A stretch of DNA of 64,000 nucleotides from IMG/VR virus record IMGVR_UViG_3300025872_000041, positions 32,001 through 96,000 of that record. The stretch is one strand, 5' to 3'. This DNA is from a virus (taxonomy: Duplodnaviria > Caudoviricetes). The position numbers and the translations under genes are program-made. This document shows positions 2,082-48,600 of this stretch, in pieces. Numbering within the stretch: the stretch's first letter is position 1; every line of letters begins with the position of its first letter. A model generated the notes under the pieces. The model saw only the letters and a program-made list of their open reading frames with translations, searched no databases and was not told the origin of the DNA.

Positions 2082-2088
2082 TACAAAC

Positions 2089-2110
2089 ATTGTTGGATAG
2101 TGAAAACAAT
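2089..2110 (+). promoter_or_regulatory. Leader hairpin ATTGTT-GGATAGTGAA-AACAAT just before the ATG at 2116
   Basis: Perfect 6-bp inverted repeat around a 10-nt purine-rich loop, ending 5 nt before the start codon. Function is inferred. Confidence 0.35.
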
Positions 2111-2115
2111 AAAAA

Positions 2116-2826: not shown

Positions 2827-2829
2827 AAC

Positions 2830-5800: not shown

Positions 5801-6213
5801 GGGGTAATCATGCCTCAGCAGGATATGCGCTCAACTCTGCTTTAGCAAACTACTTACCCTTAAGTGGAGGATCAATTGGTGGAGCCTTGACTGTTAATGG
5901 AAATTTAACTGTTAATGGAACTATTACAGAAAACTCTTCTATTAAACTAAAAGAAAACGTAGAAACAAGTGAGGGAAATTTAGAAAAGGTAGTAAATTTG
6001 AGACCAGTCACTTACAATAAGATTGGGTCTGAAACTACTGAACTAGGTCTTATTGCAGAAGAAGTTGCTGAGGTGTACCCAGAATTTGTACAATATGATG
6101 AGAACGGAGAACCTATAGGGGTTCACTACTCTCGCTTAACTGCTGCTCTTATAGGTGCAGTAAAGGAATTAACTAATCAAGTCCAAGAATTAAACAAAAA
6201 GATAAATGGCTAA
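2830..6213 (+). CDS. Tail fibre with C-terminal peptidase S74 intramolecular chaperone
   Basis: Two APxALDTLxELAAALGDD repeats, GNVGIGT repeats, and C-terminal SSIKLKENV...LRPVTY...LGLIAEEV...AVKEL followed by a coiled coil. Confidence 0.88.
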   Translation: MSNEFIVKNGLIVGGNVVTSGTITINGALAATQSWVTSQAYLTSASLSGYATQSYVTSAIAALVDAAPAALDTLNELAAALGDDASFSTTITNSIANKVAKSGDTMTGSLLFANVTDNVRLQKGSSFLNLRDPWNNIHLYNAGDGNYIDSNIHYWRSQSASYWMTLNNGNLGIGTVSPVSRLDVDGIISSRGIFIAQNSGTYNVIYNASNSVTMYLGGSGDPANYYDNTTHNFRSSGGGTTYAVITNGGNVGIGTTAPTHLLSLSRATQAAAYQLNINNVGGISDGNFTGIRFSQDLDAATELGNIKLHYYSTGATDLSFGTRYSPTAVYIQSGGNVGIGTTAPNYKLDVAGSINIYSGNSLRWGSGDAEIINSGYNLLFKTYNGSALTEKMRITPGGSLLLGDVAVPAESAWYGTAVFGKSGTDKVISGYLSSSTNGAVIGGHNSGLGAWAPFNVVGSELRFSIQENRAVTIDAARNVGVGTSTPSEKFHVSGAAIFDGGSGNSSTDAVVYITKSNNNDWGLYVNASGLDYGMYTRVSPSAGYAIGVNNGTNWTTRITGDGRVHLNNKDTIASYDSWLRLNQSGEYGSGVYTPGILRNDGEFINYGGIYGYNTIRGRKSQTNNLYTSAALWTESYDNTTTGIAFHISGVVGKFLEMRTNGVLYWDNQTVIHSGNIGSQNVSYANNAGYASESGQVTNQTGQLLRYDNRIISPSETTAGYLQFGFTSWNNDGGAPYADYLHMRSYTDSSGGTDNLVMFKKSGIGMRIYQQTFGSTTPYADYVDVWTTANFTSTNVSNWNTAFGWGNHASAGYATTSYVTTQINNLINGAPGALDTLDELAAALGDDSNFATTVTNSIAGKVSKSGDTMTGALTLNAGLNAYASPIYVNEIRFRDTAGSPQSDPYSMRWISEASARGAGNSWLEFQLNDDNNEEIRIYGNSCVGYGCGSVSENLYHVFRADGYAWHAGNLVVVGTISASGYNSGNWDTAYGWGNHASAGYALNSALANYLPLSGGSIGGALTVNGNLTVNGTITENSSIKLKENVETSEGNLEKVVNLRPVTYNKIGSETTELGLIAEEVAEVYPEFVQYDENGEPIGVHYSRLTAALIGAVKELTNQVQELNKKING

Positions 6214-21846: not shown

Positions 21847-22512
21847 ATGGTAACTATTGGAACCGTAGTCTCAAGGGTAAAAAATCAAGTTAAGAGTGTA
21901 AGACAAGATGCATTTCTTACTAATAGGTATGTTTATAATGTTATAATTAAATATGCCCAAGTTCTGATGAGGAGACAAGACTCTCAGAATAAACTATCTA
22001 AATTTAATTCTATTTGGCAAACTTTACCATGTTTAGAGTTAATTGAAATAGATAAGGTTGAAGCATGCTGCGCTGGTATAAAATCTGGGCGCACTATAAT
22101 GCGTACAAAAGATAAACTTCCCACATTCATGGAAGGTTACTGGGGTCCTTTAATTAGATCTGTAACGTCTATAGATGGTAGTCAGGAATTAAATCCTACT
22201 ACACCTGGTGTTTATACCTCTATGACTAAGACTACAGGTTTTAAATATAACAACACTAAGTACTACTGGTTTTTAAACGGTTATTTATATATGCCGAATA
22301 TTAGCTGGGAAGCTTTAAAGATAGAAGGTATTTTTATTCAAGATGTATCTCAGTATACAGATGAAGATACTTGTATTAAAAGAATGGATCATAAGATTAA
22401 TGTTCCTGAATTTTTATTAGCTGAAGCAGAAAAAATGGCTATCCAAGATTTTATTGGAAGATTACAGATTCCTTCAGATTTATCAGATGACAATATTAAC
22501 TTAAACAGATAA
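21847..22512 (+). CDS. Putative tail ring/adaptor protein
   Basis: Size and synteny; N-terminal helices and YYWFLNGYLY beta motif. Confidence 0.5.
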   Translation: MVTIGTVVSRVKNQVKSVRQDAFLTNRYVYNVIIKYAQVLMRRQDSQNKLSKFNSIWQTLPCLELIEIDKVEACCAGIKSGRTIMRTKDKLPTFMEGYWGPLIRSVTSIDGSQELNPTTPGVYTSMTKTTGFKYNNTKYYWFLNGYLYMPNISWEALKIEGIFIQDVSQYTDEDTCIKRMDHKINVPEFLLAEAEKMAIQDFIGRLQIPSDLSDDNINLNR

Positions 22513-22516
22513 GGCA

Positions 22517-23371
22517 ATGCTTACAGAATTAAAATATAAAACCTTTGATGAATTACTTGAAGATGTAAGCGTTGATTTCTCAATGTATTCTTTAGAGGGT
22601 ATGATTGAGCCTCAACAACTTATTAAAGTTGTTCAGAGAATAAATTATGATTTAGGTTTAAGAATATTTAAAACTAAAGAAGAGGTTCTAGACATTGAGA
22701 ATAATCTGGTAAAACTACCAGATGATTTCTATGTAATGAACTATGCTTTACTTTGTGGTCAATACAAAGTTGAACAGCCGGCCATGAGTGGTACTCACGT
22801 TGAGGAAGTTATAATTGACCCGGCAACTGTTACTACTCCATGTGGGGATACTTGTATTACTGATTGTGGTGATCATATGCGTCTTGTACAAAAATTACAG
22901 TATGAGACACGAATATACGATATAAATACACCAATTACATTAACTGGTAACTCTAAAAGTATTTCTTGTGATTGTCCTAATACCTCTTATAAATCACCAT
23001 ACGTTGGTAAACTTAAAGATGGTTTTATATACATGAACTTAGAGACTGGAAAACTATATGTTAACTATCAAGGAGCTTTAGAAGATGAGGATGGTAACTT
23101 ATTAATCTTAGATCACCCAATGATTAATGAGTACTATGAGTATGGTTTAAAGCAAAGAATACTTGAGAATCTTTATATGAATGGAGAGGACGTAATGCAA
23201 AAGTTAAATCTTATTGAACAAAGATTCAGAGGAGCTCGTAACAATGCATTGTCTATTGTAAATACTCCTAACTTTAAAGAGTTATCTAAATTGCATGATA
23301 TGAATAGACGTGCTATGTATGGCAAGTACTACGATCAATTTAAAAGTTACAACTATAATAGTTCTAGATAA
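22517..23371 (+). CDS. Putative tail tubular/ring protein (P22 gp4-like as annotated in crAss-like phages)
   Basis: LDIENNLVKLPDDF and GKLYVNYQG..EDEDGNLLILDHP motifs; immediately precedes the muzzle-sized gene. Confidence 0.6.
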   Translation: MLTELKYKTFDELLEDVSVDFSMYSLEGMIEPQQLIKVVQRINYDLGLRIFKTKEEVLDIENNLVKLPDDFYVMNYALLCGQYKVEQPAMSGTHVEEVIIDPATVTTPCGDTCITDCGDHMRLVQKLQYETRIYDINTPITLTGNSKSISCDCPNTSYKSPYVGKLKDGFIYMNLETGKLYVNYQGALEDEDGNLLILDHPMINEYYEYGLKQRILENLYMNGEDVMQKLNLIEQRFRGARNNALSIVNTPNFKELSKLHDMNRRAMYGKYYDQFKSYNYNSSR

Positions 23372-26300: not shown

Positions 26301-28110
26301 TTGGATGAATACTGGAAAGTATAATGTTGGTGATTTATTAGATATTGTTTTTGAGCCAACTAGTGATAGCATTCTACCTAATGATTATCATCATTTAGAT
26401 AGAAGAATGACTTCTGGATTTTTGATGGTTAGGTTTGCTTATATGTATTTGTTTAATTCTGGCGTTAGAGATTTCTATGTAGAGTCAGAAATTAACTTAG
26501 CATATAGAGATTATGATGATAATCCTGGTAAGAGACACTACGATTTTAGAACATATAGTAACTATGAGCAGTTGTTTAGTGCTCCATACATTAAAGATAC
26601 AAACTACTATAAGTATGATTACTCTTTAAGTATTAGTAAACATGTATCAAACTTTGTTTCATGGGGTAATCTTCAACCAAGAATATATGATCCTAATAAT
26701 GTAAGTTGCTTTACCTCTTATGAGACAAGAGTTATTTATTCTTTACAACAACAGTATGAATTAAGAAAAGATAACTGGAGACAGTTCTTAGCAAATAACT
26801 ATTACGACTTTAATTCTAAGGTTGTAACTATGAGAAACTTTGGTAAAACTGGTGCAGTTATTATGTTCAATGATAGCTCTCCTATTTTATTTCAAGGTGC
26901 AGAAACTTTAGATCTTAATGGTGGAACTAAATTAACTATTGGTGATGGTCAGTTATTTAATGGTCAACCATTACAAAATGTAATAAATGTAGATCCTGAG
27001 TTTGAATATGGTAGTTGTCAGAATAGATTATCTGTAATCAATACTCCAGCAGGTTTATTCTATGCAAGCCAAAACCAAGGAAAGGTATTTTCTTTTGGTC
27101 AAGGAATACAAGACATTTCTAAGTCTGGTATGAAGTGGTGGTTTTCACAATACAGTCCTTATGCTGTTCTTGAAGATTTTCCTGATCTAGATCCTATAGT
27201 ATTAGATAATACAATTATTGGGGTTGGATTACAAACTACTTATGATAACATAAATGAGATTCTTTATTTCTGTAAGAAAGACTATAAATTAAAACCTGAG
27301 TTTAAAGGTAAATTTAAAGCCGGAGCACAGAACAAACTCATATCTACAGAGTATGCAGGATTAATAATTAATTTAGGTGATCCTACATATTTTGATGATG
27401 TATCATGGACTGTTAGTTATGATCCTAAAGCAAAAGCATTTATATCTTTTCATGACTGGCATCCAGATTTAGTAATGGCTAGTAAGACATACTATATGAC
27501 AGTTAAGAATAATACTATTTGGAAACATAACTTAGTATGTAACTCTTTCTGTAATTACTATGGTGTTGATTATCCATTTGAGATTGAGTATGTACAGAAC
27601 CAAGGTCAAACCGTTACAACAACTAGATCAGTAGAGTATATTCTAGAATGTTATAAGTATTCTCCTAACTGTTTAGATTATCATCACTTATTAGATGAAA
27701 ATTTTGATCGGGCTATTGTATATAATACAGAACAAATTTCTGGGGACTTAGTATTAAACTTATCTCCTAAGAATAATCCTTATTTAATTAATAACTATCC
27801 TTTAGTAAATGCTAGTAATATTGATATCTTATTTTCTAAAGAAGAACAGAAATATAGATTTAATCAATTCTGGGATATTACTAATGACCGTGGTGAATTT
27901 ACTGGAACTTTTGTACCCATGTGGACTACTGAACCTAACGGTTATATTAGGAATATTAATGCAACTTACGTAAATTATAATAAGGGAGCTACACAAAGAA
28001 AGAAGTTTAGGCATTATATTAATAAGGTTGTATTAAAGAAGCTTATTTCCGGGTCATCTAAATTCTTATTAAAACTCTCCAACAATAAACTACTTGCATC
28101 ATTTAGATAA
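23371..28110 (+). CDS. Tail stabilisation/muzzle protein (P22 gp10-like, crAss-type)
   Basis: 1579 aa, beta-rich; N-terminal KGLLKD...HARNAV...LGNEPSN, FLRDEVYSFFI, GGDMYVNRY and WTVSYDP...ISFHDWHP; synteny with ring and cargo genes. Confidence 0.75.
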   Translation: MDGKTSLIHTELYNKGLLKDVSDAYIGEGYWTHARNAVNNSPSGDVGVLGNEPSNIACVEVPYTIIGTIYISNGKWAIYSTNDFSSEIGLFDENGCTYNTIHNDPLNQCFKFNKVYPIIGVSKYTSDCTWNLYWDDGNNPSRTMNIGKEEAWPYSPLNWEGVPYLMNDLDPGPCKDEVSSGVLDCDKLRLAAYAKTPCIQVKKGVGLGTLLNGSYQATIAYSVNGIKVTDYLAISNVQALWTHDNVNGSLDIIISDIDTDYDEFELVLIGFVNQQAVARKIGYYSTQTTTISLDAVDPTLATVPLEQIPLRTPAYEKSAGMYNVNDYLIRVGPTTYEDFNYQPLANNITAKWVGVEYPADYYYKGGNKPTFLRDEVYSFFIRWIYDTGDKSSSYHIPGRAPKPGELNNNSSPDHIIDFGQEQEWQVNNTATILPASGTTDDGGLIKYSGELAYWESTEKYPDNKPEIWGDLCAENIRHHKMPDDIVIPNYNPTTNSIIILGVEFSNIEFPVDQNNQYITSIIGYEILRGTREGNRTIIAKGLINNMREYDIPDKIAGDKVTTGLYVNYPYNFLDHDPFLGRDKATLDRPGNRSVQTKGGAFRDKDKYDSTGLSNVDVTLFDGVKRDIFSFHSPETTFRNPFLSATELKVYGEVYGNVIGRFIPVENHPKDKFITDTAVILSSLAGVAIGVTAANAANGNALDQGKAAIMTVALGSIIGTPVAGASGAVVGAFAGAAAYAIGRAFLLSYYWLESTRNIVEIIESIGKKRQFAYQYVSHGFYNNLIKAAVGSRRRGIKNSLYLDPVVQEYDNIYRINNLYRANTVVLTTERTINDPITKDNTLFTIGHIARSQNGRPDLSVYGVDDKGNPFNAKDIWKEPEAYTQTSVTSAHYAALKIKNDNLYGQLDGIRQIPVGCINLWTINKALKATSGLVFGGDMYVNRYTEKSTFFYFTQWMQNLPDSTEWDYRLYNMLPYPRYWMNTGKYNVGDLLDIVFEPTSDSILPNDYHHLDRRMTSGFLMVRFAYMYLFNSGVRDFYVESEINLAYRDYDDNPGKRHYDFRTYSNYEQLFSAPYIKDTNYYKYDYSLSISKHVSNFVSWGNLQPRIYDPNNVSCFTSYETRVIYSLQQQYELRKDNWRQFLANNYYDFNSKVVTMRNFGKTGAVIMFNDSSPILFQGAETLDLNGGTKLTIGDGQLFNGQPLQNVINVDPEFEYGSCQNRLSVINTPAGLFYASQNQGKVFSFGQGIQDISKSGMKWWFSQYSPYAVLEDFPDLDPIVLDNTIIGVGLQTTYDNINEILYFCKKDYKLKPEFKGKFKAGAQNKLISTEYAGLIINLGDPTYFDDVSWTVSYDPKAKAFISFHDWHPDLVMASKTYYMTVKNNTIWKHNLVCNSFCNYYGVDYPFEIEYVQNQGQTVTTTRSVEYILECYKYSPNCLDYHHLLDENFDRAIVYNTEQISGDLVLNLSPKNNPYLINNYPLVNASNIDILFSKEEQKYRFNQFWDITNDRGEFTGTFVPMWTTEPNGYIRNINATYVNYNKGATQRKKFRHYINKVVLKKLISGSSKFLLKLSNNKLLASFR

Positions 28111-31100
28111 TGGCAAAGAAAAAACCTATAGTATCTCCTTTAGGTCAGTGGGCTTATCCCGGTGAAGTTACAATCATACCCTCTTCTAACATAACAATGA
28201 AGGGGGTTAATTATCCTGTATTAGGTGTAGATGATTTAGGTAACAGCCAGATGATGATGCCAGGTCAAGATTATAATTTTGCTGGACAATATGTAACTGA
28301 GTATCCTCAGATGCAGTTTGGTGGTATGTCTAAAAGAAAGATAGACAAAATTCTTAATCAGAACAAAGATTTAAACTTTGTTCAAAGAATGTATCAATCT
28401 AATACACCAAGTATAATTATACCCGGTCAGAAATATCCTTCTACACATTTTATGGAAAGCTCTGATGGTCGTGTATATCCTACAGTTGTACAAATGCCTG
28501 ATGGTAGTTTACAATACTTAGGAGATAATGCATATGATTATGCAAATCAGACCGGTCAGTATATTGAGTTTCCTAATGATAGGCAAGCTAGAAGATTTGC
28601 TAAGAGTTATAAAAAAGGAACCGGGGTATTACAAGAGTTTGGTAAAGGTGGTTTAAGACAGTGGTTTGCTGAAGAGTGGACCGATGTTAAGACCGGTAAA
28701 CCTTGTGGTAGGTCAGGTGATGAGAAAGGTTCTAGACCTTATCCTGCATGCAGACCTAAGAAGCGGGTAAATGAAACAACCCCCAAGACTACATCAGAGA
28801 TGTCATCTGCAGAGAAGGCTAAGTTTAAAAGAGAGAAAACATCTGGTAAGCGTATAGACTATAATCATAAGCGTAGACAAGATGGTGGTGAAACAGGATG
28901 GTTAGATGAATATCAAACTGGTGGTAGTGAACAGAATCCTGAAAGAATGCAGGGTATTGATATCAAGCGTAAAAAGAAAAATGTAAGCGATAGTCCTAGA
29001 TATCAGTATGATGATAAAGGTAATTTATTATATACTCCAGAATTAAGTATATGGCCATACGCATCAGATGGTAGTTCAAGAGATGAATTTTTAGTAAATC
29101 CTAAATTATCTGTTCAGAATTTAAATCCGACTTTAGAAGAATTTATAAATGTTGCTTCTCCATATTATCCGATAGATAATAAGTTAGTAACGGATCCAAA
29201 AATTAATTTACAATCCTCTAATTATCAAAGATCTCTAGAACAAGAATATGTTTTACCACAGATAGTTGGTAAGTCATTTGGTAATTTACCTATAGTTAAA
29301 GATGATGGATATTCTCCAAATAGAAGATGGGTCTCTAATTTAAGAGCTAAAGATACTGGTGCAAAATTTGGTAAAGATTCTTATGCCTATGTTTTAAAAA
29401 CTAATCCAAATAATTTAGTAGATTATTCTACAAAAAAGGCTATTGAAGCTGCAGTATCTTCAAATGATGAAGATTTTTATGATTATTTAGCAAAAAATAA
29501 TTATTCACCTAATATGGTGCAGCAACTTGAAAAAAACCGTCCTGATCAAATCTGGAATCGTGCGGAACAAATGCGGGTTGAAATGCGTAATAATCCAGAA
29601 ATAATGTCTTGGGCTAATCTGCATAATGTGGATTTGGGATATAAAGAAAAAGGAAAAGGTGATGATTCTTTTGCTTCTAAAATTCCGGAATCTATTTATG
29701 CAAATAGATTAGTAAGAGCAGGATTACCTACAAATAGACCTGACTATGAATATAAACCGATGGAAACTTATATAGTACAAGATCCTTCTAAGTTTGATCT
29801 TGCTGGTTATTTTCCAATGGGTTCTATAGTAAAAGATGCTGAGCAAAAAGTACTTAATAAAAAAATACCAGGAAAATTAAAAAGAGAATATATCTATAGT
29901 AATAGTCCAGAATATTTTGAAAAAGAAGCTTATATAAAAGATGAGATGGCAAGAAGAATGGGTATTAATCCAAGTGCTTTTGATTCTGGAGAGTATCTTA
30001 TTCACTATAATCAATCACCTATAACAGAATATACACCAGGTAAGAAATATGGTGGATGGTTAGAAGAGTATCAACGTGGTGGAACATTACCTCCTATATA
30101 TACATCTAATCCAAGAAAAGTACAATTTTATCAGGATAGTTTAAATTTATATAATAAATATCAACCATCCTTTGATAAATATAAAAACTGGACTAGACTA
30201 AATAATATACAAACTGCTTCTTTACAAGGTAATGATTTATTTAATCAGCATTGGGGTCCTTTTAAACCTAAAGGTCCTTCTCCTTATAATGAGCATATAG
30301 TAATAAAACCTGTAGAAGAAATGATGCATCATTATCTAAGACCTCGTGGGGGTCCAGGTAATTTTACTCATCTTACTGAAAGACCAGGAAATAATTATTT
30401 AGAAACTAAACTATCTGATTATCTTACACCTAATTCAAGAGAAACTCGTCTTTGGCATGCAGTTGATAATAATGGTAGGTACTTACCACTGGGTGTTGGT
30501 ATAACTCCTTCTCAAAAAAGAAGTAATGATGCTAGAAGAAGTAGAACGTGGCCTGTTAGTGTAACTAAAAAAGATTTTCTAGATTTAGGATTAACTGGTG
30601 TTACTCCAGATTTAAATTCTGTTTTTAGATTTAAAAAACCAGTACAACCTTATATTTTAACAAATCCAGAAATTACTCCTAAAGTAGTAGAACCAGTTTC
30701 AGTAGTAGAACCACCTAAGCCTTCTTTATTTGTATCTAATATAGATAGGGACATGTATACTCCCGGTGGAGGAATGGCTAGAGAATATAACATTGGTGTT
30801 ACATTACAAGATGGCAACCGGAAATCATTCAGAACTGAAAAAGAATTTCAGGATTGGAAGGCTGCAAATAACTTAGATATTAGTAAAGCTAAAGTAACTG
30901 AAGGTAGAGGTTATAGTTATGACTATCCAGAAAATAAGAAGTATGGTGGATGGTTGAATAAATATCAAACAGGTGGTTGGGCTGGTTGGACACCTAATGT
31001 AGGTAAGCCATATATGAGAACTAGTCCTGCAGGTAATGCCGGCTACACTGATAATACTAGAGTAGTTAATCAGAATACAAATGTTAGTGCAGAGAATAGA

Positions 31101-33914
31101 AAAGCAGCGGAAGCAGCTGAATATGCTAAACGTGTAGGTAGTATTAGTCAGGGTAAAACTAAATCTGCTTATGAAAAAGCAAGAGAAGCTAGTTCATTAG
31201 TAGCACAAGCAGAACAACGTAAAGGTTCTGCTGATCCTTTAGACTATGTATTAGATATGGTTAATCCGGCTACGTATGGATTTGCCGGAGCTGATCTAAT
31301 AGGTAATACTGCAATGGGTGTAAACAACTTAGCTAAAGGTAATTTTAGTGAAGCTGCTGGTAATGCTTTTGATGCTGGTATGAATGCTTTGTATTTATTG
31401 CCTGCAAAAGGTGTTGCTAAAGCTATTGCAAGTCCTATGGCATTTAGACCTGTAGAAGGTATGATGTATAGAGGTCTTGGTAAAGAAGGTTTTAGAGATG
31501 CTATAGAGTCAGGTGTATTTAGACCTAAACAACTTAATTATTCTCCCGGTAGATCTCTTGCTGAAAAAGCTAACTCTCCAAAACAATTTAGTAGTACATA
31601 TTATGCACCAAGTAAAAAATTTGGAGTTGTAGAAAGATATGGTTCAGATTATGTAGCTGAAGTACCTTATAATGAAGCTGATTTTTTTAGAAGGTATAGT
31701 AAAAGAAATGATTGGAGTTATTCTACTCCAAGACAAATTCCTATTACTGAAGGAAGAATATTAAAGAAAGATTGGTTACTAGGATATAAACCAATAGATG
31801 TTTCTAATGCACAATCTTCTATGAATCTATCTAAAATGGATGGTAGCTATTTAGTTCGTGAACTTTTAGGAGAAGCAATTAAAGGTAATCAAAATAGAAA
31901 AGCAATTGCTGAAGGAAATGCTTGGTTAAAAAATTGGATTGATGATCCAATAACTCAAACTAAGATAGATACTGATTTAGGTTGGATTCCACAAAGAAGT
32001 AATATTTTAAAAGATAAATTTAGCTTAGGCTATGAACAAGCTAAATCATTTACACCTGTTTCAAAAGAATATCCTTTTTCAGAACAATTAAACGATTATT
32101 TTATTCGTGTTAAACCCCATATACATTCTGGTAATAGTGGTGTAAGTTATTTACACAGTAGAGATCCCTATTCAAGATCAATATCAGAACAATTTAATGA
32201 TCCTAGATTAAAAGCTAGTTGGATTAGTAGAAATCCTAGTATATCTAAACCAGTAAGAAGATCTACTACTGTTCATGAAGGAACTCATGACTGGACCTCT
32301 GATTTTTTATTGAGAGAATCAGGACAAATGGGTGACATAAGAAATTTATATTCAGATGATATTAGAAATCTCAGTGATCAATGGAAAAGTTTAAGAAATA
32401 GCGGTATTAATCCTTCTGAAGTAATGGGTCGTGAAAATGCTACTTTAGGTTATTTAGCAGATCCAACTGAAGTACATGCTAGAATTATGGAATTAAGGCA
32501 ACTTATGAAAATGACTCCGGAACAATCTGTAATGGTTACTCCTGAAAAAGCTGCTGATATAATAACAAAAGTACAAAACCCAAAAAATGCAAAATTTGTA
32601 GATCCTAGATTTCTTGATGTTATAGATAAAGATCCTAAAAAATTAGCAACTTTATTTAATAGACTATGGGCGGTTCCTGCTGTAGCTACAGCATCTCAAT
32701 TACTAGAACAAAAGAATGGTGGTTGGTTAGATACATATCAAGATGGTGGAGAGAATCTTCCAGAGTTAAATTCTAAAATAGATATTGCTAACTTCTATAA
32801 GAATCCTTTAAGTGAGAAGTATGGTATCTACCAGGATCCTACAGATAATACATACAAGTATTATTCAAAGTCTGCAGAGGAACCAAACATCCCATTAAAA
32901 ACATTTGATTTTACTAATCTGGGTAATATTGCAAGAAGAATTGATAAAAAGGAAATAACTACTCCACAACCAATTAAGTATAATTCTAAAATGATAGATT
33001 ATGCAGCTGATCAGGATTACTTAACAGCATTGGCTACTGAAGAATTTCCTATTATTCCACCATCTTTTAAAGATGTTTTAAGTAATATTCCTAAATTAGA
33101 AACAATAAATACTATTCCTAAACCTAAAGCGTTACCTAATAAACAACCTGCAGTCAATAACGCTTTTACATTTGATAGCAATTATTGGAATAGTGCTGAT
33201 GTACAAGCTGAGGTTTTTAATAGACAATTAAAAGATAATAAATGGTATGGTGAGTTTGATAAACGTGGTGATAATGTATTAAATAGAACTGATGTAAAAA
33301 GAAATTATGACTCTGAAGTTTTCTTACAGAATTTAGCAACTCCAAATTCTGTAGTTATAGATATTGGATCTGCTTTAGGTAACAATAATCCAAAACTTGC
33401 AGGGGTATCTGTATATGAATTAGCTTCTAATCCTAAAATAAAAAGTAAGAATATTAAAGTTATAGCAACAGATATTCCTTCAGAAGTAAAAGGATTTGAA
33501 GAATTAAAAAGACGCGGTAATAGTGTGTATCCTATTGATTATGCTCAAGTACCAGAAACATTTAATACTCCTGTAAGAGATATTTTAAAAGCTAAAAATC
33601 TAGAGAATGTTAAAGATGTATATCTTAGAGCTGCTAATAGTATAGATTTGCTTATGAATGTACAGGAAACTAGTGAACATTTTAAACATATAAGTAGTAC
33701 TTTAAAAGATAAAAACGTAACTTACTTATATAACAATACCATATTATATAAACCAGCTGGTTCTACTAAATTTAAAAAATTAGGTAATTTAAATAATAGT
33801 GCTTTTGATCATAGATCACCAAGTTGGAAAAATAATCCTAATAGAAATCATTATACACTCTTACCAACTAATAAAACCGGTGGTGAAACGGGTTGGCTTA
33901 ATAAATACAAATAA
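28110..33914 (+). CDS. Modular (polyvalent) putative virion cargo polyprotein with GGWLxxYQxGG linkers
   Basis: Five GG(ETG)WLxxY linkers plus QFGG and GKGG separate unrelated modules, including a zincin HEGTH, an ART-like YRG segment and a methyltransferase-like DIGSALG segment. Confidence 0.75.
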   Translation: MAKKKPIVSPLGQWAYPGEVTIIPSSNITMKGVNYPVLGVDDLGNSQMMMPGQDYNFAGQYVTEYPQMQFGGMSKRKIDKILNQNKDLNFVQRMYQSNTPSIIIPGQKYPSTHFMESSDGRVYPTVVQMPDGSLQYLGDNAYDYANQTGQYIEFPNDRQARRFAKSYKKGTGVLQEFGKGGLRQWFAEEWTDVKTGKPCGRSGDEKGSRPYPACRPKKRVNETTPKTTSEMSSAEKAKFKREKTSGKRIDYNHKRRQDGGETGWLDEYQTGGSEQNPERMQGIDIKRKKKNVSDSPRYQYDDKGNLLYTPELSIWPYASDGSSRDEFLVNPKLSVQNLNPTLEEFINVASPYYPIDNKLVTDPKINLQSSNYQRSLEQEYVLPQIVGKSFGNLPIVKDDGYSPNRRWVSNLRAKDTGAKFGKDSYAYVLKTNPNNLVDYSTKKAIEAAVSSNDEDFYDYLAKNNYSPNMVQQLEKNRPDQIWNRAEQMRVEMRNNPEIMSWANLHNVDLGYKEKGKGDDSFASKIPESIYANRLVRAGLPTNRPDYEYKPMETYIVQDPSKFDLAGYFPMGSIVKDAEQKVLNKKIPGKLKREYIYSNSPEYFEKEAYIKDEMARRMGINPSAFDSGEYLIHYNQSPITEYTPGKKYGGWLEEYQRGGTLPPIYTSNPRKVQFYQDSLNLYNKYQPSFDKYKNWTRLNNIQTASLQGNDLFNQHWGPFKPKGPSPYNEHIVIKPVEEMMHHYLRPRGGPGNFTHLTERPGNNYLETKLSDYLTPNSRETRLWHAVDNNGRYLPLGVGITPSQKRSNDARRSRTWPVSVTKKDFLDLGLTGVTPDLNSVFRFKKPVQPYILTNPEITPKVVEPVSVVEPPKPSLFVSNIDRDMYTPGGGMAREYNIGVTLQDGNRKSFRTEKEFQDWKAANNLDISKAKVTEGRGYSYDYPENKKYGGWLNKYQTGGWAGWTPNVGKPYMRTSPAGNAGYTDNTRVVNQNTNVSAENRKAAEAAEYAKRVGSISQGKTKSAYEKAREASSLVAQAEQRKGSADPLDYVLDMVNPATYGFAGADLIGNTAMGVNNLAKGNFSEAAGNAFDAGMNALYLLPAKGVAKAIASPMAFRPVEGMMYRGLGKEGFRDAIESGVFRPKQLNYSPGRSLAEKANSPKQFSSTYYAPSKKFGVVERYGSDYVAEVPYNEADFFRRYSKRNDWSYSTPRQIPITEGRILKKDWLLGYKPIDVSNAQSSMNLSKMDGSYLVRELLGEAIKGNQNRKAIAEGNAWLKNWIDDPITQTKIDTDLGWIPQRSNILKDKFSLGYEQAKSFTPVSKEYPFSEQLNDYFIRVKPHIHSGNSGVSYLHSRDPYSRSISEQFNDPRLKASWISRNPSISKPVRRSTTVHEGTHDWTSDFLLRESGQMGDIRNLYSDDIRNLSDQWKSLRNSGINPSEVMGRENATLGYLADPTEVHARIMELRQLMKMTPEQSVMVTPEKAADIITKVQNPKNAKFVDPRFLDVIDKDPKKLATLFNRLWAVPAVATASQLLEQKNGGWLDTYQDGGENLPELNSKIDIANFYKNPLSEKYGIYQDPTDNTYKYYSKSAEEPNIPLKTFDFTNLGNIARRIDKKEITTPQPIKYNSKMIDYAADQDYLTALATEEFPIIPPSFKDVLSNIPKLETINTIPKPKALPNKQPAVNNAFTFDSNYWNSADVQAEVFNRQLKDNKWYGEFDKRGDNVLNRTDVKRNYDSEVFLQNLATPNSVVIDIGSALGNNNPKLAGVSVYELASNPKIKSKNIKVIATDIPSEVKGFEELKRRGNSVYPIDYAQVPETFNTPVRDILKAKNLENVKDVYLRAANSIDLLMNVQETSEHFKHISSTLKDKNVTYLYNNTILYKPAGSTKFKKLGNLNNSAFDHRSPSWKNNPNRNHYTLLPTNKTGGETGWLNKYK

Positions 33915-33919
33915 CTAAA

Positions 33920-36436
33920 ATGAAAGATAAATTTTTACAAATGGCTGGTGTTAATTCTGAGGAAGAATTCTATTCTATGTTTCCTACAGAAGAAGCATTC
34001 TTTCAAGCTTATCCTGAAGCCAGAGAAATGAAAAAGGGTGGTAATGTACCCACTAATCCAGAACTATATTCTCGTGTTAAATCTGAGGCTAAATCTAAAT
34101 TTGATAGATGGCCTTCAGCTTATGGTTCTGCATGGCTTGTTAAGACTTACAAGAGCCGTGGTGGTGGATATAGAAAAGCTCAAACCGGTGGTGCTATGGG
34201 ACAAGAAATGTTTCAGTATCCTAACTATGAATCTCTTGGTAGCTACTTTGATAAAGTAAATGAGTATAATAAAAATAATATTCAAGAGCCTGTTGGTGAT
34301 TTCTTAAAAAATACTGCAATGGCTATAGGTCAAGGAATGGATAATGGTGAAGGAAATGGTGAAGATAAAATGAAAATGGCTAATCTTGCTATGAATTTTA
34401 TGGGTATGCCAGCTATGGGTATGGGTGGTGTAGGTATGATGATGCGTGATAACTATTATGATGAAGGTGGTGAAATGGCAATGGGTCAGATAATGGCTAT
34501 GAATGATAAGATTGCTAGATTACAAAACTTTATTAATGCTGAGTCAGAAGTTGAACCCTGGGTAGCTAGTAAATTAACTTTAGCTGATGATTATATTTCT
34601 TCTGTTGCTGATTACATGCAATTTAATGAGGGTTCTCAAGAAGAAGGAGAGGAAGAAGAGGAAGACATTGACATGAACATGGGTGAGATGGAAGAGATGA
34701 AGATGGGTGGTATTCCTCAGCGTTATAAGAACCGGGGATTTACTAAAGTAGGTGCTAAAAGAAAATCTGATAGAGCTGGTAAGAAATGGATGGTATTAGC
34801 TAAGAAAGGTGACAAGTATAAAATTGTACATGGTGGTTACACTGGTATGAAAGATTTTAGTCAACATGGTTCTGAGAAGCGTAAAGATAATTTCTGGAAT
34901 AGAATGGGTGGTAAGAACTCAGCTAAGGCTACAGATCCATTCTCTCCTTTATACTGGCACAAGCGTTTTGGTACTTGGGCTAAAGGTGGTGAAATGATGC
35001 CTCCTGAGATTGCACGTGCACGTTTTGCAGCTGCCGGTAACTTAGATAAATTAGATGATTATGGTTATGCTATGGGTGGATATATTCCTGAAATGGCTGC
35101 TGGTGGTTGGGCACAACAAGCTGCTATTGCCATTGCAATGAAAAAAGCTGGTAAGAAACCTAAGTCTGCAAAAGGTGGTGAACCACAAAATGCTGGCTTC
35201 CAAGCATTACCTCCTTATGTACAAGCTAAGATCTTATCTAATATGGCAGAAGGAGGAACTTATGGTTCTGCTCCTATTAATACATTCATGTCTCCTGGTA
35301 TTGATAATGATCCTAGGTTTGAACAATATTATAATCAACAGATACAACAATTTAATAAAGCTGGTGTAAAACAAGTACCATCACGTAATGATATTTATTC
35401 TTACTATCAGTCTTCTAATCCTCAATCAGCCGTAGATCAAACAGGACGTATGATTTTTAATTCTGCACCAGGAACTATTTCTAGCTCAACTACATTTACA
35501 CAAGCTGTAGATCCTAAAACAGGTAAAGTATTAAATCAAGGTTCTAACTTAGAAAAGGCTGCATTTGATCAACAAGCTCGTAGATTTCAAGAAGGTGGTC
35601 CTGCTTTAACAGAAGAGCAAAAAGCTGCGGCTGCTGAAGCTGCTGCTAAGAAAAAGAAACGTAATGATACTATGACTGGTATTGGTTTAGGTATTGGAAC
35701 TGCTGCTGGTGTTATTGCTTCTGAAATCAGAGCTGCTCGTAAGCAGAGAGGTTATGAAGAGTTTATGAATTCTAATGATCCAAGACTTGGTACTGGTCAA
35801 ACTCCATCAAATAAAGAACTTCGTAAAATGGGTAGAAGAATGTATGGTGGTGATATAGATATGTATGGTGGTCAAATGGATATGGATGCTATGTATAATA
35901 TGATGAAGGGTGGTTCTACATTTAGTGGAAATGCATGGTATGGTAAAGGTGGACAACCTTGTTATGAATGTGGTGGTAATGTATATCAAGAAGGTGGACA
36001 ACAAGATGAGGTTATGCAAGCTATTCAGATGTATGCTGAGATGACTCAAACGGATCCTGAGCAACTTATGGCAGAACTACAATCTTTACCTCCTTTGGAG
36101 CAACAAGAGGTTATTCAAAAGATTATGCAAGCTATTCAAGAAGCACAAACTGGTCAAATGAAGAACGGTGGTATCTATATTAATCCAGCTAACAAAGGTA
36201 AGTTTACTGAGTCAGCTAATAGAGCCGGTATGGGTGTGCAAGAGTTTGCTAGAAAGGTACTTGCAAATAAAGAGGACTATAGTGCAACACAAGTAAAAAG
36301 AGCTAACTTTGCTAGAAACGCTGCTAATTGGAAGAAACAATTTGGCGGCATGACTCAAGGTGCAGAATTAGAATTACATCCTGATGAGATTCAAGCATTG
36401 ATTGATCAGGGTTATGGTATTGAGTATTTAGATTAA
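33920..36436 (+). CDS. Met/Gly-rich polyprotein of short modules separated by xxxGG motifs
   Basis: About 16 motifs (MKKGG, AQTGG, YDEGG, MKMGG, WAKGG, YAMGG, MAAGG, SAKGG, MAEGG, FQEGG, MYGG x2, YQEGG, MKNGG, KQFGG and others). Confidence 0.75.
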   Translation: MKDKFLQMAGVNSEEEFYSMFPTEEAFFQAYPEAREMKKGGNVPTNPELYSRVKSEAKSKFDRWPSAYGSAWLVKTYKSRGGGYRKAQTGGAMGQEMFQYPNYESLGSYFDKVNEYNKNNIQEPVGDFLKNTAMAIGQGMDNGEGNGEDKMKMANLAMNFMGMPAMGMGGVGMMMRDNYYDEGGEMAMGQIMAMNDKIARLQNFINAESEVEPWVASKLTLADDYISSVADYMQFNEGSQEEGEEEEEDIDMNMGEMEEMKMGGIPQRYKNRGFTKVGAKRKSDRAGKKWMVLAKKGDKYKIVHGGYTGMKDFSQHGSEKRKDNFWNRMGGKNSAKATDPFSPLYWHKRFGTWAKGGEMMPPEIARARFAAAGNLDKLDDYGYAMGGYIPEMAAGGWAQQAAIAIAMKKAGKKPKSAKGGEPQNAGFQALPPYVQAKILSNMAEGGTYGSAPINTFMSPGIDNDPRFEQYYNQQIQQFNKAGVKQVPSRNDIYSYYQSSNPQSAVDQTGRMIFNSAPGTISSSTTFTQAVDPKTGKVLNQGSNLEKAAFDQQARRFQEGGPALTEEQKAAAAEAAAKKKKRNDTMTGIGLGIGTAAGVIASEIRAARKQRGYEEFMNSNDPRLGTGQTPSNKELRKMGRRMYGGDIDMYGGQMDMDAMYNMMKGGSTFSGNAWYGKGGQPCYECGGNVYQEGGQQDEVMQAIQMYAEMTQTDPEQLMAELQSLPPLEQQEVIQKIMQAIQEAQTGQMKNGGIYINPANKGKFTESANRAGMGVQEFARKVLANKEDYSATQVKRANFARNAANWKKQFGGMTQGAELELHPDEIQALIDQGYGIEYLD

Positions 36437-42636: not shown

Positions 42637-45600
42637 ATGGAAGAATTTGACAATGCAATTCCACCACTAGGTGTTGAACCCGGTTTGCCTTCTAACTTTG
42701 AAGGATCAGATGCTTTTCAAGCAAGTATTGCGCCAACTAATGAGCCGTTAATATCTGTAACTGATACCTATGCTGTTCCTGGAGTTCCAGTACCTTCAGC
42801 ATTTGGTAGCGTTGCTGTAGATTATGATCCTAGTAATCCTTTTGATGTTGCTAAACAAGCATTGACAAAACCTATTACTGAATCTGATGTTGCATTTGAG
42901 ACTTCAAAAGAAAAATATTTTCAGCCTGGGTATCAGCAAACAAACTTTGATAGATACTATAATGATAGTGATAACTTCTATAAGCTAGGATTTAATCCAT
43001 TAGCTAATAACGAAGCATTATATAATCAGAATAGAAGTTGGTATCAAGATTTATTTAGAGCAGCTGGTGGTATTCCTTCATTAGGATTATCTGTTGTTCA
43101 ATCAGGATATAGAAGTCTTGCCGATATGGCAACTGGTGATTTCTCTATGACTGATGAAACTGGTGCTAGAGAGTTCTCCCAGATTATGGCAGAACGCGGC
43201 AGCACTAGAGGTGGTGTATCTGGTTTTGCTTCTAATTTAGTTTTACAATCAGGATTTGTTGCAGGTATTGCAGCAGATTACTTAGCTACTGAAGCATTAC
43301 TTGCTGGTGCTGTAGGTTTATCTGAAGGTATGGCTCTTCCTGCAGCTCTTGCTGCTAGTGCTTCTAAAACAGCTGGTACTATTAGATCCATTTCTGCATT
43401 GTTTGATGCTAATACTGCTAGACAAGCTTACAATACAATTAAAGCTATGGATGTGGCTGCTATTGGTAGAGGTGCATTAAATGTAGCTGAAGCAACTGCT
43501 AAGAATATTGTTCCTAATACATTTAAGAATGTTAAGAGTTTCATTACTGCAGAAAGCCCTGTATTAGGATTAGCTAATTCAGTAAGAGGTGTTGCTGACT
43601 TTGTAAGAGATATGAAGCAGATTAGCTATGCTACTGCTGAAGCTTCTATGGAAGGCGGAGGAGTTAAAAATGATTTTATTGATAAACATATTAATCAATA
43701 CATTACTGAGAATGGAGTATATCCAGATCAAGATGTATTAAATAAGATTTATGAGAAGGCATCAGATGCTGGTTTTACAACTGGTATGATAAATGCACCC
43801 CTTATTCTTCTTACAAACAATATCACTTTTGATAACTTGTACAAAGGTCGTAAAAGCACATTAGGTAAAACAGCTTCAGGTATTGTAGAGGAAAGTAAAT
43901 TAACTGGAAAAACTTTAAGATTCTCAGAAAGAACCGGACAGTTTGAGACTATGGGTATAAGACAATCTTTTGCTGAAAGCATAAGAGGTCTTAAAACTCC
44001 AAAAACGTACATGCAGTTTGCTGGTGGTTATTTCTCTAAAAACTTATCTGAAGGTCTTCAGGAAATTTCTCAAGAGATTATTTCTGGAGCATCTACAGAT
44101 TACTATGAAAGATTATATGATACTCCAGAAGCTGGAGGTGTAGTAGCTTACTTAGCAGATGCTTATGATAATCTTAAAGATCAAGCATCAGCACAAGGTA
44201 TTGAAGTATTTGCTTCAGGATTTTTAATGGGAGGTCTTACCGGTATTTCTACTGCTGTAGCTAACAGAGCTTATGGTAGTAGTAAAAATATTATTGGTAA
44301 GATAGCACAAGCTAAGAACCCAGAAGAGTATAGAAAAGCTGTAGAAGAAGAGAGCGCTAGATTTAATAAGATTGCTGATGAATTAAATGATGCCATTAAT
44401 AATGGTAATAAAGTTCTTGCTCTTGATATAGATAATTTATTATTACAAATCAGAGGAGGTACTGATATGGTTAATGCTAGAAAATCATTTGATGAAAAAG
44501 CATTCCATGATATTAAAGACATAACTCGTTTTAATAGTATCTATACAGCTCTTCAAACTGACAAATATGATTTCTTAATTAAGAAATTACAGGACATGCA
44601 GCAAATGACCGGTGCAGAATTAAAAGAGGCATTTAGTTTAGCTGATGATGTTACAGATGATGAGGCCAAAAAAGTATTAGATATTACTATTGATAGAGCT
44701 GGTCAAATTAAAGATCAGTATGAGCAGTTCTCTGCATTTAAGAATCCTTTTAATCCTAATACTTATAGATCTGCTAATACTCCAGAATCCATTATTGGAT
44801 TTATTAATGAGTTACAAAGTTATAAAGGATTTGAAGAGGCCCGCAAAACTGCAGTATTTAGTTTACATGGTTTAGAACAAGCTAAGACACGTATGGCTGA
44901 TTTAACTAAACAGATGTCATCTATTGGTGGTGTTGCTGATTTAGGTTACTCTGATGTTACAGCTACCTTAAGTATTGCAGGTATTGATAATGAAATAAAC
45001 TTATTAACTGCAGAGATTGAATCTAGTAAAGATATAACTGATCCGGGTCTTATTGAGATTAATGATAATAAAAAGAAGAAGTTAAAAGCTTTAGAATCTT
45101 TAAAAACTAATCTTGCCCGTGTTGAAAATATTAATGATCCTGTAGAAGTAAGAAAGACTTCTTATTTAAAGAAAGCTTTTAATGACTACATGAAGGTTCT
45201 TTTAGATGAGAAAGGTACTGAACTCAGTCCTGCAGATCTAAATGAAGCATATAGAATCTTTACTGATTATTATGCACTCAATTATGATAAGACAAACTTT
45301 AATAAAGTCTTGGCTGACTTATATGATCCTAATAACTTTATTAAGCTTGCTGAAAGAGAGCGTACTTTAGTTGTTGCAAGAGATAAAAGAAGAGCTGAGT
45401 TCTTTAAGAAAGCATTTAAAAAATATGCTGAGACATCTAAGATTGGTATATTTTTAAAAGCTTTAGCTACTGGTGGATTTGTTATTGATCTTAAGTATCT
45501 TAAAGCTTTAGATACTAATACATTTGATGAGCTTAAAGAACTTATTTTAAATGATCCGGATATTAAGTTTAGAGATCTAAATAGTAATAAGTTATTTGGT

Positions 45601-48600
45601 AAAGAAGATCCAAGATTTCAAAATATTAAATCTTTTGTATCTGACTTTGAAGTAAAAACAAAAGCTGAAGTAAAACAAACACCATCTGATACTAGTAAAC
45701 CCAAAGAGGCATCTCAATTTTCTACAGATACTACAGAAGAGGAAGAAGAACTTGGTTCAGAAGATATCACAGATGTAAGTGAATTTACACAAACTATTGT
45801 ACGTAGAGCATATGATGATTACTTAAAGGCTTTAAAAGAAGCAGACATACCTGTATCATTTGAAGAGTTTGCAACAAGTAAAAAAGCTGTTAGTATTATT
45901 AATGCTCTAACAGAGTTAGAAGCAGCTTATGATGCTATTACGGAAACTAAACCTGAGTTTACTGAATGGTTAAGAGTAAATGCAAGAACCCCTGTAGTAT
46001 TTGATGTACTAGATAAAAATGGTGTAACTTTCTCAGATATCTTTATTCAACAAAGAGATGAGAATCAATATATTACTACAGCATTAGAAGAAGGTGAAAG
46101 TATTGTATCTTCTGGATATAATGGGGTTTTTATAACTAAACTTGTAGGATCTATTGAAGGCGGAGAAGGTGTAGATATTTATTTTGTAAAGTTAAACGAT
46201 GGCACTATGGCCATTGATGCTACTAATAAGCCTGATGAACTAATTGATTTTGAAATAGATATTTATACAAGTTTAGAGAAAGCTCAAAAAGCTCAAAAAG
46301 CAATTGGTGATTATTTAGCTAATAATAAAAAACAATTTGTATTTGACAATACTCCATTAGTTAATGGTCAGATTATATCTGATAATAAAAATAATGAATA
46401 TGTAGTTTTATCTTATCCTTCAGAAATTGCTGCTGGCTCTAATCTTAAACTTAAAAACTTAAAGACCGGAGCTATTCTAACTACTAAATCTTTTACAGGA
46501 TTTAAATTAGAGAGAGTACCTGTTGAAAAGAAAGAATATGCTTCAAGATTTGATTCTACTAGTGTATTAGATAGAGCTTGGGGTAAAAGAATGGAGAATG
46601 AATCTCAGAAAGATGCAACAGCACGTCTAAGTAATTTATTAAGAGATACTCCTATTGAAGAATTACTTAGTGGTCTTAGTATTAGATTTACTAATCTTAA
46701 TAAATCTCCTGAGAGATATGATTATCTTAGGTTACCAGATCAGAAAGAAAATCAATCGTTTGGTTTATTTACTGATTCTTATGCAATTGCATTAGTATTT
46801 AATGGTGAAGAGATTGGTTATTTACCTAATCCTACATCTTTCCAATTCTTAGATGTAAATGGTAATCCTATCTCTTATGATAGAATAAATGCTGATAGAG
46901 TTAAGCAAGCTTTCTATTTAAAGAATGGTAGATACAATCAAGCAGTTGCTGATATAAAAGCTAGTTATAAGAATAAAATTGCTTTATTAAATTATTTAAA
47001 ATCTAAACTTGGCAAAAATACATCTGTAGAAATTCCTTATTCAGATCTTAAGAAGGTTGCAAATATCAATATTGGTTTAGGATCTTATGAGTTCTTATCT
47101 CGTGATGAAGAAAGACCTAAGTTTTCTGGATTAACTTATAATACTATTAATGGTGGTATCTATGTAATTGATAGAAAAAATAAATATAAGAATGGTTCTA
47201 TTGTAACAGTAGAAGGTTCTCCTATTACAGATATTGATCCTGATTTATTAGAGTCAACCATTAAAGAAGTTGATGCTGCTAGGTATAAAAACGGTTATGA
47301 TACTTTACTTAACTATGGTAGATATGTAGCTGTTGTCAAACTACCTAATGGTAAAGTTAGATTTGTTGAGTTAACTACACCAGAACTTTCTTCTGAAGAG
47401 TTAAATACTTTAGCTGCTAGCATTAAAGAAAGAATTGAGTTAACTAAGAAAGAGAATATAGATGACGAGGGTAAACCATTAGCTCAGGAATATAATGATG
47501 TATGGAATGAAGATAATATTGGTAGTAAACTATTTATTTCTTTACCATTAAAAGATAGAGGTAAGTTTCTAGATATTTATGTTAGTCCTAACGGATCTTT
47601 AGTTTTAGACTTTGTAAATAAAAATTCTAGAGCTGATAAAATAACTCGTAAGAAAATTATTAATGACCCTCAGTTTAATACATTCTCTGAATTACTTACT
47701 TTACTAAATACTGCTATTAAAGAACATGATGCTGATGTAAAGTTACCAGCTAATAAAATGGATATTGTCCTTACTGGTAGATCATTTAAAGCAACTTTAC
47801 CAATGAACATTGATACATTACAGGTTCTAGATATGGAAGCTAGTGTAGGTGTTAATGTGGTTAAAGATGTATCTGTATATGTAGATATGCTTGAGCCAGC
47901 TTCTGATGTTCAAGCACAACCGTTATTACCAAAAACTCCAGATGATGTATTAGATATAGATACTTCTAATATTGATTTTAGTTCTGCTCCTCCTGATGCA
48001 AATATAAATCCAGAGTTATTAAGAGGTGTTGCACCTGTTCAAGTAAGTTCTGGAGATGCTCTAAGTAAAGTATTAGCTGCTCAAAAATCCATTCCTCAGC
48101 AGATTAAGCAGTTACAAGCTGAAGCTGATACTAAAACTGATGAAGTAAAAAAAGTATTATTAGCTCAAAGAGTTGCTGAGAAAGGTGAATTAACTACTGC
48201 TGATAAAAAAGAGATTAGGACAAAAGCTGAAAACTCTCCAGAAGTATTAGCTATTAAAGCTCAAATTAAAATCTTAACTGATTCTCTAGCATTAAAAGCA
48301 GTAAATACTGGTTACACTGAATCTGATGTAACTAATTTAACTGAGTTCTTAACCTGGGTACAAAATAATCTTCCGGACTTTGTGACTGTAGAAGATTTAA
48401 ATACTCTTAAGAATAACTTATATAAAGATGGTAAGACTGTGGGTGCATTTGTATCTTCATTGTCTAACATAGCTGGTAATGTAGAAGTAAATGGTACTAT
48501 ATATACATCCGCTAGTTCTCCATTTAAATATCATGAAGCTTTTCACGCAGTATTCCGTTTATTATTAAATGATGCTCAGATATCTAGATACTTAACAATT

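Follow-up and report, generated by a model that had tools for sequence, protein, structure and literature searches.

In a 64,000-nt stretch of viral DNA (the window; positions 32,001 to 96,000 of the virus contig record IMGVR_UViG_3300025872_000041, 114,558 bp, CheckV completeness 96%), the open reading frame (ORF) at 28110..33914 (+) encodes a protein of 1934 amino acids (aa), here called ORF1934, in which one short peptide, the tag, recurs five times and separates cassettes that show no similarity to each other. Homology between ORF1934 and its relatives breaks at the tags, and the cassettes between them differ in number and order from one relative to the next. We consider it slightly better than an even prospect that ORF1934 is a modular cargo protein standing in the position that cargo protein C1 holds in phage crAss001, with tags that are selected as peptide, that likely stay uncut and act as handle or spacer, and at which recombination resolves.

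The tag and its five copies

The tag has the form GG-(0-3 residues)-W-L-x-x-Y-[Q/K], followed by x-G-G before another cassette and by a stop codon otherwise, as at the C-terminus of ORF1934 (...GGETGWLNKYK-stop). An earlier note, made from the DNA letters alone, had placed five such linkers in this protein; all five lie where it put them, the last directly before the stop (Table 1). The sizes that it gave for the cassettes between the linkers (about 370, 280, 580 and 370 aa) hold, and the mutual dissimilarity that it described agrees with the absence of any off-diagonal self-match of ORF1934 in BLASTP at E<=1e-3.

Across the six frames of the window the pattern GW[LI]xxY[QK] matches five times, always inside ORF1934. 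The tag DNA pattern occurs five times forward and never in reverse in the whole 114,558-bp genome, where a reversed control pattern gives 0 matches. Among 20,000 shuffles of the ORF1934 protein the mean number of tag copies is 0.001 and the maximum is 1, against the five observed. Most of the 13 GG dipeptides of ORF1934 belong to the five tags (9), the others being found in degenerate seams (2, at aa 71 and 180) and within cassette 3 (2). A sixth tag-like peptide, KDWLLGYKP (aa 1222; 31773-31799 of the window), lacks the glycine hinges and closes the middle part of cassette 4. A domain of this kind ending in DWLxGYK recurs in the family members P0013, P0079, P0151 and P0154.

Selection on the tag

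The earlier note had also pointed to a likeness of the linker DNA, and the copies are indeed alike, with identical codons at 39 of 65 identical residues. This likeness is attributable to the peptide together with strong codon bias (GGT 73%, TTA 68% and TAT 92% in ORF1934), the codon identity of 0.60 comparing with 0.62 +/- 0.08 expected from the peptide and the codon usage of the ORF (P = 0.62).

Identity at tag positions +2/+3 is 0.68 in pairs of tags that have only the upstream flank in common (169 pairs), 0.38 where only the downstream flank is shared (43) and 0.33 where neither is (2296), while position +6 behaves in an intermediate manner, with identities of 0.35, 0.44 and 0.16 in the same pair classes. 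Positions +2/+3 thus covary with the upstream flank, indicating that the unit of exchange is a cassette plus its own C-terminal tag, which fits a protein that ends in a tag. Judged from these sequences, crossovers lie mostly in the Y-Q-x-G-G half. The lack of any codon excess, the retention of the peptide in distant relatives and at protein termini, and the covariation with the upstream flank together indicate that selection acts on the peptide. Recombination at the tags may be a consequence of this conservation, possibly an exploited one.

Cassette shuffling and breakpoints

The four distinct orthologues encoded on viral contigs are 1099, 1810, 509 and 1391 residues long and have one to four tags each. 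When 32 close relatives are cut at their tags, 89 segments in 12 families result, with differing orders and tag numbers: ORF1934 itself (Q) reads F0-F2-F3-F1-F5, P0016 reads F0-F3-F4-F5, P0023 reads F0-F9-F1-F2 and L001 reads F0-F1-F3. The same cassettes in the same order, which the earlier note had named as the pattern that would speak against exchange, are therefore not what the relatives carry. P0015 is 94.9% identical to ORF1934 over Q174-662 and unrelated past the YQ of tag 2, and in P0023 cassette 2 sits C-terminally. The DUF5872 module and its tag are joined straight to cassette 3 in P0029, and the DUF5872 tag is joined to cassette 4 in P0036 and L002. P0016 is 89.5% identical over Q1500-1934, behind other cassettes, and both P0016 and P0033 have only cassette 5 and the terminal tag in common with ORF1934.

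These breaks were placed by the internal ends of high-scoring segment pairs (HSPs) among 31 proteins (>=50% identity, >=80 aa; 500 randomisations). HSP ends lie <=10 residues from a tag in 37.6% of 1398 cases, compared with a null mean of 3.9% and a randomisation maximum of 5.4%, so that homology breakpoints map to the linkers, as the earlier note had proposed to check. HSP ends peak a second time at a distance of about 90-100 residues from tags, which matches the degenerate N-terminal seams. The junction in L002 is nucleotide-exact: its left side is tag 1 and its right side tag 3, the switch falls within TATCAAAC, and over the following 30 bases L002 does not differ from the window.

Metagenome contigs of other studies likewise end or are joined at the linkers, which bears on a second check that the earlier note had suggested. 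Logan contigs from four runs of four studies were placed on 27110-34914, and the loose ends and joints given here are those among the matches listed. One contig of 1282 bases from run X8 follows the window over 29670-30074, with 5 differences in 405 bases, as far as the YQ of tag 2 and continues with 877 bases of other sequence, the start of which reads like the cassette that follows this tag in P0015. Loose ends at tags are found at 28891 (tag 1), 30074 (tag 2), 30942 (tag 3) and 33879 (terminal tag), and others at 28305-28641, in the degenerate seams, at 32582, which is 47 residues ahead of tag 4, and at 29875-29927 within cassette 2. Five of the nine listed joints and back-joints in ORF1934 have both ends in or by a tag (28892>30942, 30064>33904, 32720>33891, 30967>28941 and 32750>28941). 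Another, 28301>28641, connects two degenerate seams (2 contigs, side 70); 32874>33879 and 29895>33915 have one end at the terminal tag or stop, and 29818>29990 has neither end at a tag. Summed over the contigs of run X5, depth in the bins 28676-28936, 30764-31024, 32591-32851 and 33896-34156, which contain DUF5872 with tag 1, tag 3, tag 4 and the end of the gene, exceeds several-fold that inside the cassettes; many relatives sharing tag-adjacent sequence may account for this, and such depths cannot rank the parts. Neither depth differences between bins nor regions that no contig covers are used as evidence.

Distribution of the tag and its family

A scan of viral contigs for the exact pattern GGWLxxYQxGG gives 48 stretches, all in open frames of 153-1343 aa and usually preceded by K/N-rich residues, and a tail of the GG..WLxKY type ends 18 of the 20 distinct ORFs that close inside their locus. 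In 596 Gb of bacterial and archaeal genomes the same pattern gives 50 stretches, mostly in short or broken frames and never with a second copy; by reading, only one of them (L066, a Bacteroidia bin) has a phage-like context. On these counts the tag is virus-specific and its cellular occurrence is at chance level. Mimicry of a host peptide was considered and rejected on the same ground, the exact pattern being at chance level in cellular genomes.

A phmmer search of the full library with the first 262 residues of ORF1934 finds 4312 proteins at E<=1e-3, and a W-L tail lies within the last 14 residues in 43 of the best 150 family members. The family members P0001-P0180 and the query together contain 132 distinct copies of the tag, of which 80 are internal, 43 stand at the C-terminus and 9 directly follow the initiator Met; L is conserved in them at 0.97 and Y at 0.92, W being invariant by construction of the pattern. 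In four viral loci ORFs start with M-x-W-L-x-x-Y and the upstream ORF has no terminal tag. A 519-aa ORF at 1581-3140 on the reverse complement of L018, a viral contig, carries all three arrangements, with MDWLNQYREGG N-terminal, GGWLQQYQQGG internal and GWLNKYK C-terminal. In cultured phage records, tblastn finds DUF5872 matches only, in five records, none of them crAss-like. The literature search found the tag motif strings in no paper.

Modules and cassettes

The first 258 aa of ORF1934 consist of three modules joined by degenerate seams, and the large cassettes follow (Table 1). Cassettes 2 and 3 have no Pfam match at E<=5, nor do cassettes 4 and 5; ORF1934 falls in no PHROGs family, and neither it nor the next ORF (ORF838) has a match in a PDB sequence search.

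Table 1. Features of the modular gene and its neighbours, in coordinates of the window.
Feature	Position	Strand	Basis or remark
Tail ring protein 2 gene	21847..22512	+	Pfam CrAss_Ring_2, E 3.5e-18
Tail ring protein 1 gene	22517..23371	+	Pfam CrAss_Ring_1, E 1.9e-15
Muzzle protein gene, 1579 aa	23371..28110	+	Pfam crAss_MUZ E 6.4e-33; phrog_37948 E 5e-59
Module A, aa 1-69	28110..28316	+	Conserved family head; internal in some relatives
Degenerate seam PQMQFGG, aa 66-72	28305..28325	+	Relatives without aa ~76-173; contig joint 28301>28641 in run X8
Module B, aa 73-175	28326..28634	+	Variably present among relatives
Degenerate seam EFGKGG, aa 176-181	28635..28652	+	Relative alignments, contig ends
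Module C, DUF5872-type	28653..28874	+	PF19197 E 1.6e-11, match aa 158-247
Tag 1, RQDGGETGWLDEYQTGG	28875..28925	+	Motif match; W codon 28899
Cassette 2, ~370-372 aa	28926..30041	+	No known family
Tag 2, KKYGGWLEEYQRGG	30042..30083	+	Motif match; W codon 30057
Cassette 3, ~282-284 aa	30084..30935	+	No known family
Tag 3, KKYGGWLNKYQTGG	30936..30977	+	Motif match; W codon 30951
Cassette 4, 577 aa	30978..32708	+	Composite of three parts, found apart from one another in relatives
Part 4b, aa ~1095-1235, mobile domain	31392..31814	+	Ends in KDWLLGYKP, W codon 31773
Part 4c, aa 1226-1524, predicted zincin-type metallopeptidase domain	31785..32681	+	HEGTH 32274-32288, PTEVH 32463-32477
Tag 4, QKNGGWLDTYQDGG	32709..32750	+	Motif match; W codon 32724
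Cassette 5, ~371-373 aa	32751..33869	+	VIDIGSALG at 33354-33380
Terminal tag NKTGGETGWLNKYK and stop	33870..33914	+	Motif match; W codon 33894
Next cargo-type gene, 838 aa (ORF838)	33920..36436	+	DUF5872 and DUF5754

The three parts of cassette 4 lie at about aa 957-1100, 1100-1230 and 1226-1536. The domain of part 4b is also found in P0013, P0054, P0079 and P0094; its atlas score of 0.85 to the Tox-ART-HYD1 cluster gives a weak lead to an ADP-ribosyltransferase. In part 4c the H-E-x-x-H motif and a downstream E and H are invariant in 23 aligned sequences (H165, E166, H169, E230 and H232 of A1), and its AlphaFold2 (AF2) model has a mean predicted local distance difference test score (pLDDT) of 82.9. 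Comparison of this model with 48,161 representative chains (VIA-wide) returns a list composed almost wholly of zinc metallopeptidases, including PepO (Z 6.3, root-mean-square deviation 6.6, 200 aligned), ECE-1 (6.2), neprilysin (5.7), PPEP-2 (5.6) and thermolysin (4.3), values of Z that are modest and inconclusive taken alone; Foldseek against the PDB gives no match at E<=1e-3. The HExxH motif, the downstream ligand and the modelled fold together identify part 4c as a predicted zincin-type metallopeptidase domain. A related-locus search with part 4c finds one locus only, which lies on the L001 contig. Modelled by AF2 together with the zincin, tag 4 does not occupy the active site; it comes out as disordered, at a pLDDT of about 30 and with a helix of 4 residues at WLDT, which is no evidence either way on cleavage.

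The AF2 model of cassette 5 is of low confidence (pLDDT 57.9), and the Foldseek matches obtained with this low-confidence query are nearly all SAM (S-adenosylmethionine)-dependent methyltransferases (E 7e-4 to 4e-3, top probability 0.98). An atlas lead to methyltransferase (0.89-0.91) and the peptide VIDIGSALG, read by eye as a candidate glycine-rich SAM-binding motif, point the same way, and the second half of cassette 5 is probably a Rossmann-fold methyltransferase. The Pfam domains present in 29 long relatives are SLT (5), LysM (3), Amidase_2 (2), YkuD (1), PG_binding_1 (1), DUF5872 (23) and DUF5754 (5); by these domain assignments the family combines enzymes that act on the cell wall with enzymes of other kinds, a mixture that would be expected if the proteins are ejected.

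Genomic context

ORF1934 directly follows the genes for two tail ring proteins and the muzzle protein, and the muzzle stop and the ORF1934 start share the overlap TAATG. The order ring 2, ring 1, muzzle, ORF1934 is that of crAss001 (gp43-44-45), which places ORF1934 in the C1 position. ORF838 starts 6 bases past ORF1934 and contains the N-part of DUF5872, DUF5754 and 22 GG sites (2.6 per 100 aa); it is 39% identical to aa 350-437 of crAss001 gp45 (BLASTP, E 2e-5). Parts of the ORF1934 and ORF838 types are fused into one protein in 21 of 153 relatives. On this sequence evidence ORF838 belongs to the same modular system as ORF1934. Its C-terminal tail is ...QALIDQGYGIEYLD, and a similar tail (...QGYEFEII) is present in at least 12 of 150 family representatives; the ORF838-type tail may be a second conserved end tag.

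The ORFs after ORF838 have 1186, 853 and 4552 aa. The last of these (42637-56295) has no Pfam or PHROG match, occupies the place of the RNA-polymerase-associated cargo giants of crAss001 and may be a fusion of them. Further upstream, two ORFs of the tail-fibre type at 2830-6213 (1127 aa) and 6206-12805 (2199 aa) each have a terminal Peptidase_S74 intramolecular chaperone domain, and between a 692-aa ORF and these genes lies a 236-aa ORF with a NUMOD3 motif (2116-2826; E 1e-6) that is probably a homing-endonuclease-like insert. At least half of the sampled gene words are present in 20 runs from 12 studies, of which 17 runs are labelled as freshwater, lake-water or aquaculture metagenomes and the other three are unlabelled; the phage is an environmental, freshwater crAss-like phage.

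Comparison with known systems

In crAss001, gp45 and gp46 are the cargo proteins C1 and C2 (Bayfield et al. 2023, PMC10172136). The helix at aa 214-245 of C1 is bound in the tail barrel, and aa 425-552 are one resolved, portal-bound domain; the proposal is that C1 is stored in tail and capsid, in part in each, and leaves from N to C after partial unfolding (PMC10172136; structures PDB 7QOG, 7QOI, 7QOJ, 7QOL and 8CKB). The gp45 sequence (842 aa) has 20 GG sites, with AFGGWLNTQGG at aa 425-435 and AYGG just before the helix at 214-245. Like ORF1934, gp45 is a GG-punctuated chain encoded directly after the muzzle gene; unlike ORF1934, it has a single GGWL peptide without the Y-Q part and no terminal tag. 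The available part of PMC10172136 reports no enzyme cassettes in gp45 and describes no cassette exchange.

The polyvalent proteins of phages and conjugative elements combine unrelated domains in one polypeptide, are encoded among virion genes, are thought to be delivered with the DNA and commonly include a zincin-like domain (Iyer, Burroughs, Anand, de Souza and Aravind 2017, PMC5512222). ORF1934 resembles them in its unrelated domains (DUF5872, the zincin fold and the methyltransferase-like fold), in the place of its gene in the virion block and in its zincin-like domain. By analogy, it may work like a polyvalent protein in the crAss C1 position. However, the words 'linker', 'glycine' and 'crAss' are absent from the available part of that paper, which describes no shared boundary tag, and processing by a peptidase is its authors' hypothesis, whereas most of the tagged proteins here have no peptidase motif. 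Exchange at conserved glycine-containing motifs has a parallel in the adhesins gp38 of T-even phages, where such motifs alternate with hypervariable segments in one frame (Trojet et al. 2011, PMC3157838, citing Tetart et al. 1996, 1998). The gp38 motifs form a constant set in a constant order, for which a role as structural core of a single small domain is proposed. In contrast, the tags of ORF1934 are hinges that link whole domains with no relation to each other (tag 4 being disordered in its model), and the 32 relatives differ in how many tags they have and in the order of their cassettes.

In polymorphic toxins such as CdiA and Rhs, a short conserved motif borders a variable C-terminal module that is swapped by recombination. 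The earlier note had drawn this parallel, which holds for the conserved motif bordering a variable module and fails for the surroundings, as neither a polymorphic-toxin immunity gene nor orphan cassettes lie directly downstream of ORF1934, where ORF838 comes next. ORF1934 also differs in having several variable modules in series and in its predicted delivery by the phage particle instead of a secretion system. The internal proteins of T4 carry a capsid targeting sequence of about 10 residues, which brings proteins with no other resemblance into the capsid and which the prohead protease cuts off. This sequence is a functional model for a possible role of the tag, with the difference that in T4 it is N-terminal only and the tags here are N-terminal, internal and C-terminal.

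Possible roles of the tag

Under the explanation that we favour, ORF1934 would travel inside the particle until its ejection. Its modules A and B, the DUF5872 module and then four large cassettes would be lined up like beads on a string. Each tag would form a helix of one to two turns with W, L and Y on one face, between glycine hinges, and, left uncut, would be a handle or spacer that holds, orders or threads the modules in the particle. The tag is also the only sequence that the unrelated cassettes have in common. Its codons of low degeneracy and the strong codon bias create identical runs of 8-20 bases, and recombination between co-infecting relatives or within the gene would resolve there in frame, mostly in the Y-Q-x-G-G half, whereby units of a cassette plus its tag would be gained, lost and reordered. 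The tags, their conservation at the peptide level, the shuffling and the breakpoints are direct observations; the handle function and the recombination mechanism are inferred, as is the cargo status, from gene order.

An unlikely alternative purpose for the tags is polyprotein processing, in which a protease of the phage (possibly the cassette 4 zincin) or of the host would cut, for example after Y-Q/K or at G-G, within the particle or once injected, to free the cassettes as separate effectors, the C-terminus ...WLNKYK mimicking a processed end. The same protein does contain a zincin-type domain with invariant HExxH, E and H, natural C-termini lie exactly at tag position +5/+6, and the tag goes with the cassette upstream of it, as expected of a recognition site on the P side; peptidase domains have, moreover, been proposed to process polyvalent proteins (PMC5512222, in the part available). 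However, HExxH is absent from 31 of 53 tag-bearing proteins and a zincin of the part 4c type is present in only 9 of them, tags right after the initiator Met (9) and at C-termini (43) have nothing to release, and no S78 or ClpP prohead protease turned up when the phage genome was searched for them. The related peptide of gp45 also sits within a contiguous resolved segment, and the words 'cleav' and 'proteoly' are absent from the available text of PMC10172136. The near-invariant W, L and Y, the terminal copies and this evidence against cleavage favour an uncut handle or ordering element.

The tags might also be neutral hinges, flexible spacers for an unfolded chain in the tail, with random illegitimate recombination of which in-frame joins at borders survive and no guidance by tag DNA. 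The predicted disorder of the tag region (in the tag 4 model) and the lack of DNA conservation beyond the peptide would suit this, as would the seams without the W-L core (FGG, GKGG) and one without glycines (aa ~1100) that also border modules. It is nevertheless quite improbable, as W, L and Y are near-invariant across thousands of diverged proteins, also at free N- and C-termini, and junctions regenerate a perfect tag, one of them in an 8-base identical run. The earlier note had taken the linkers as microhomology for cassette exchange. Exchange at the linkers is real, and terminal tags would offer a 3' anchor for swapping the last cassette, but that the linkers are kept for their DNA, with a peptide of no function of its own, is hardly credible: synonymous positions are no more alike than codon bias predicts (the codon identity of 0.60 does not exceed its null of 0.62), and the peptide is kept where the DNA has diverged, in relatives of 40-60% identity.

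Several points weigh against the explanation as an uncut handle in a C1-type cargo protein. BLASTP finds no significant similarity between ORF1934 and gp45 (best E 0.36), its cargo status is read by analogy from gene order alone, and the handle role is putative. Breakpoints at tags could be explained by selection for intact modules, with no role for tag DNA, and the conserved zincin peptidase in the same protein makes processing at the tags conceivable. Merging the HSP ends into bins of 10 aa leaves 407, of which 20.6% lie within 10 aa of a tag, and both the HSP-end and the pair statistics rest on related, non-independent sequences. Among the contig joints, 29818>29990 and 29895>33915 start away from tags, and some joints have sides of 21-30 bases and may reflect a relative's tag that resembles another tag of the window.

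Implications for crAss-like phages

A broader proposal, to which we give a rather small chance, is that W-L-x-x-Y-(Q/K), set between glycine hinges, is a universal address tag of a large crAss-like branch. By docking to a conserved virion component, it would bring any module bearing it into the particle or maintain the order of ejection, and it would double as an in-frame recombination joint. If true, the combination of address tag and joint would be a plug-and-play system for assembling and exchanging sets of injected effectors. The finding bears on the open question of how several megadaltons of cargo protein are selected, packed and ejected by crAss-like phages, for which the tag is a testable candidate packaging or ejection signal. 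The tag also predicts the borders of modules in unannotated giant genes, and the exchange that it bounds shows the natural re-sorting of presumably injected enzymes, among them a predicted peptidase, a probable methyltransferase and cell-wall hydrolases. If the tag suffices for loading, phage particles could in laboratory strains be used to deliver chosen proteins.

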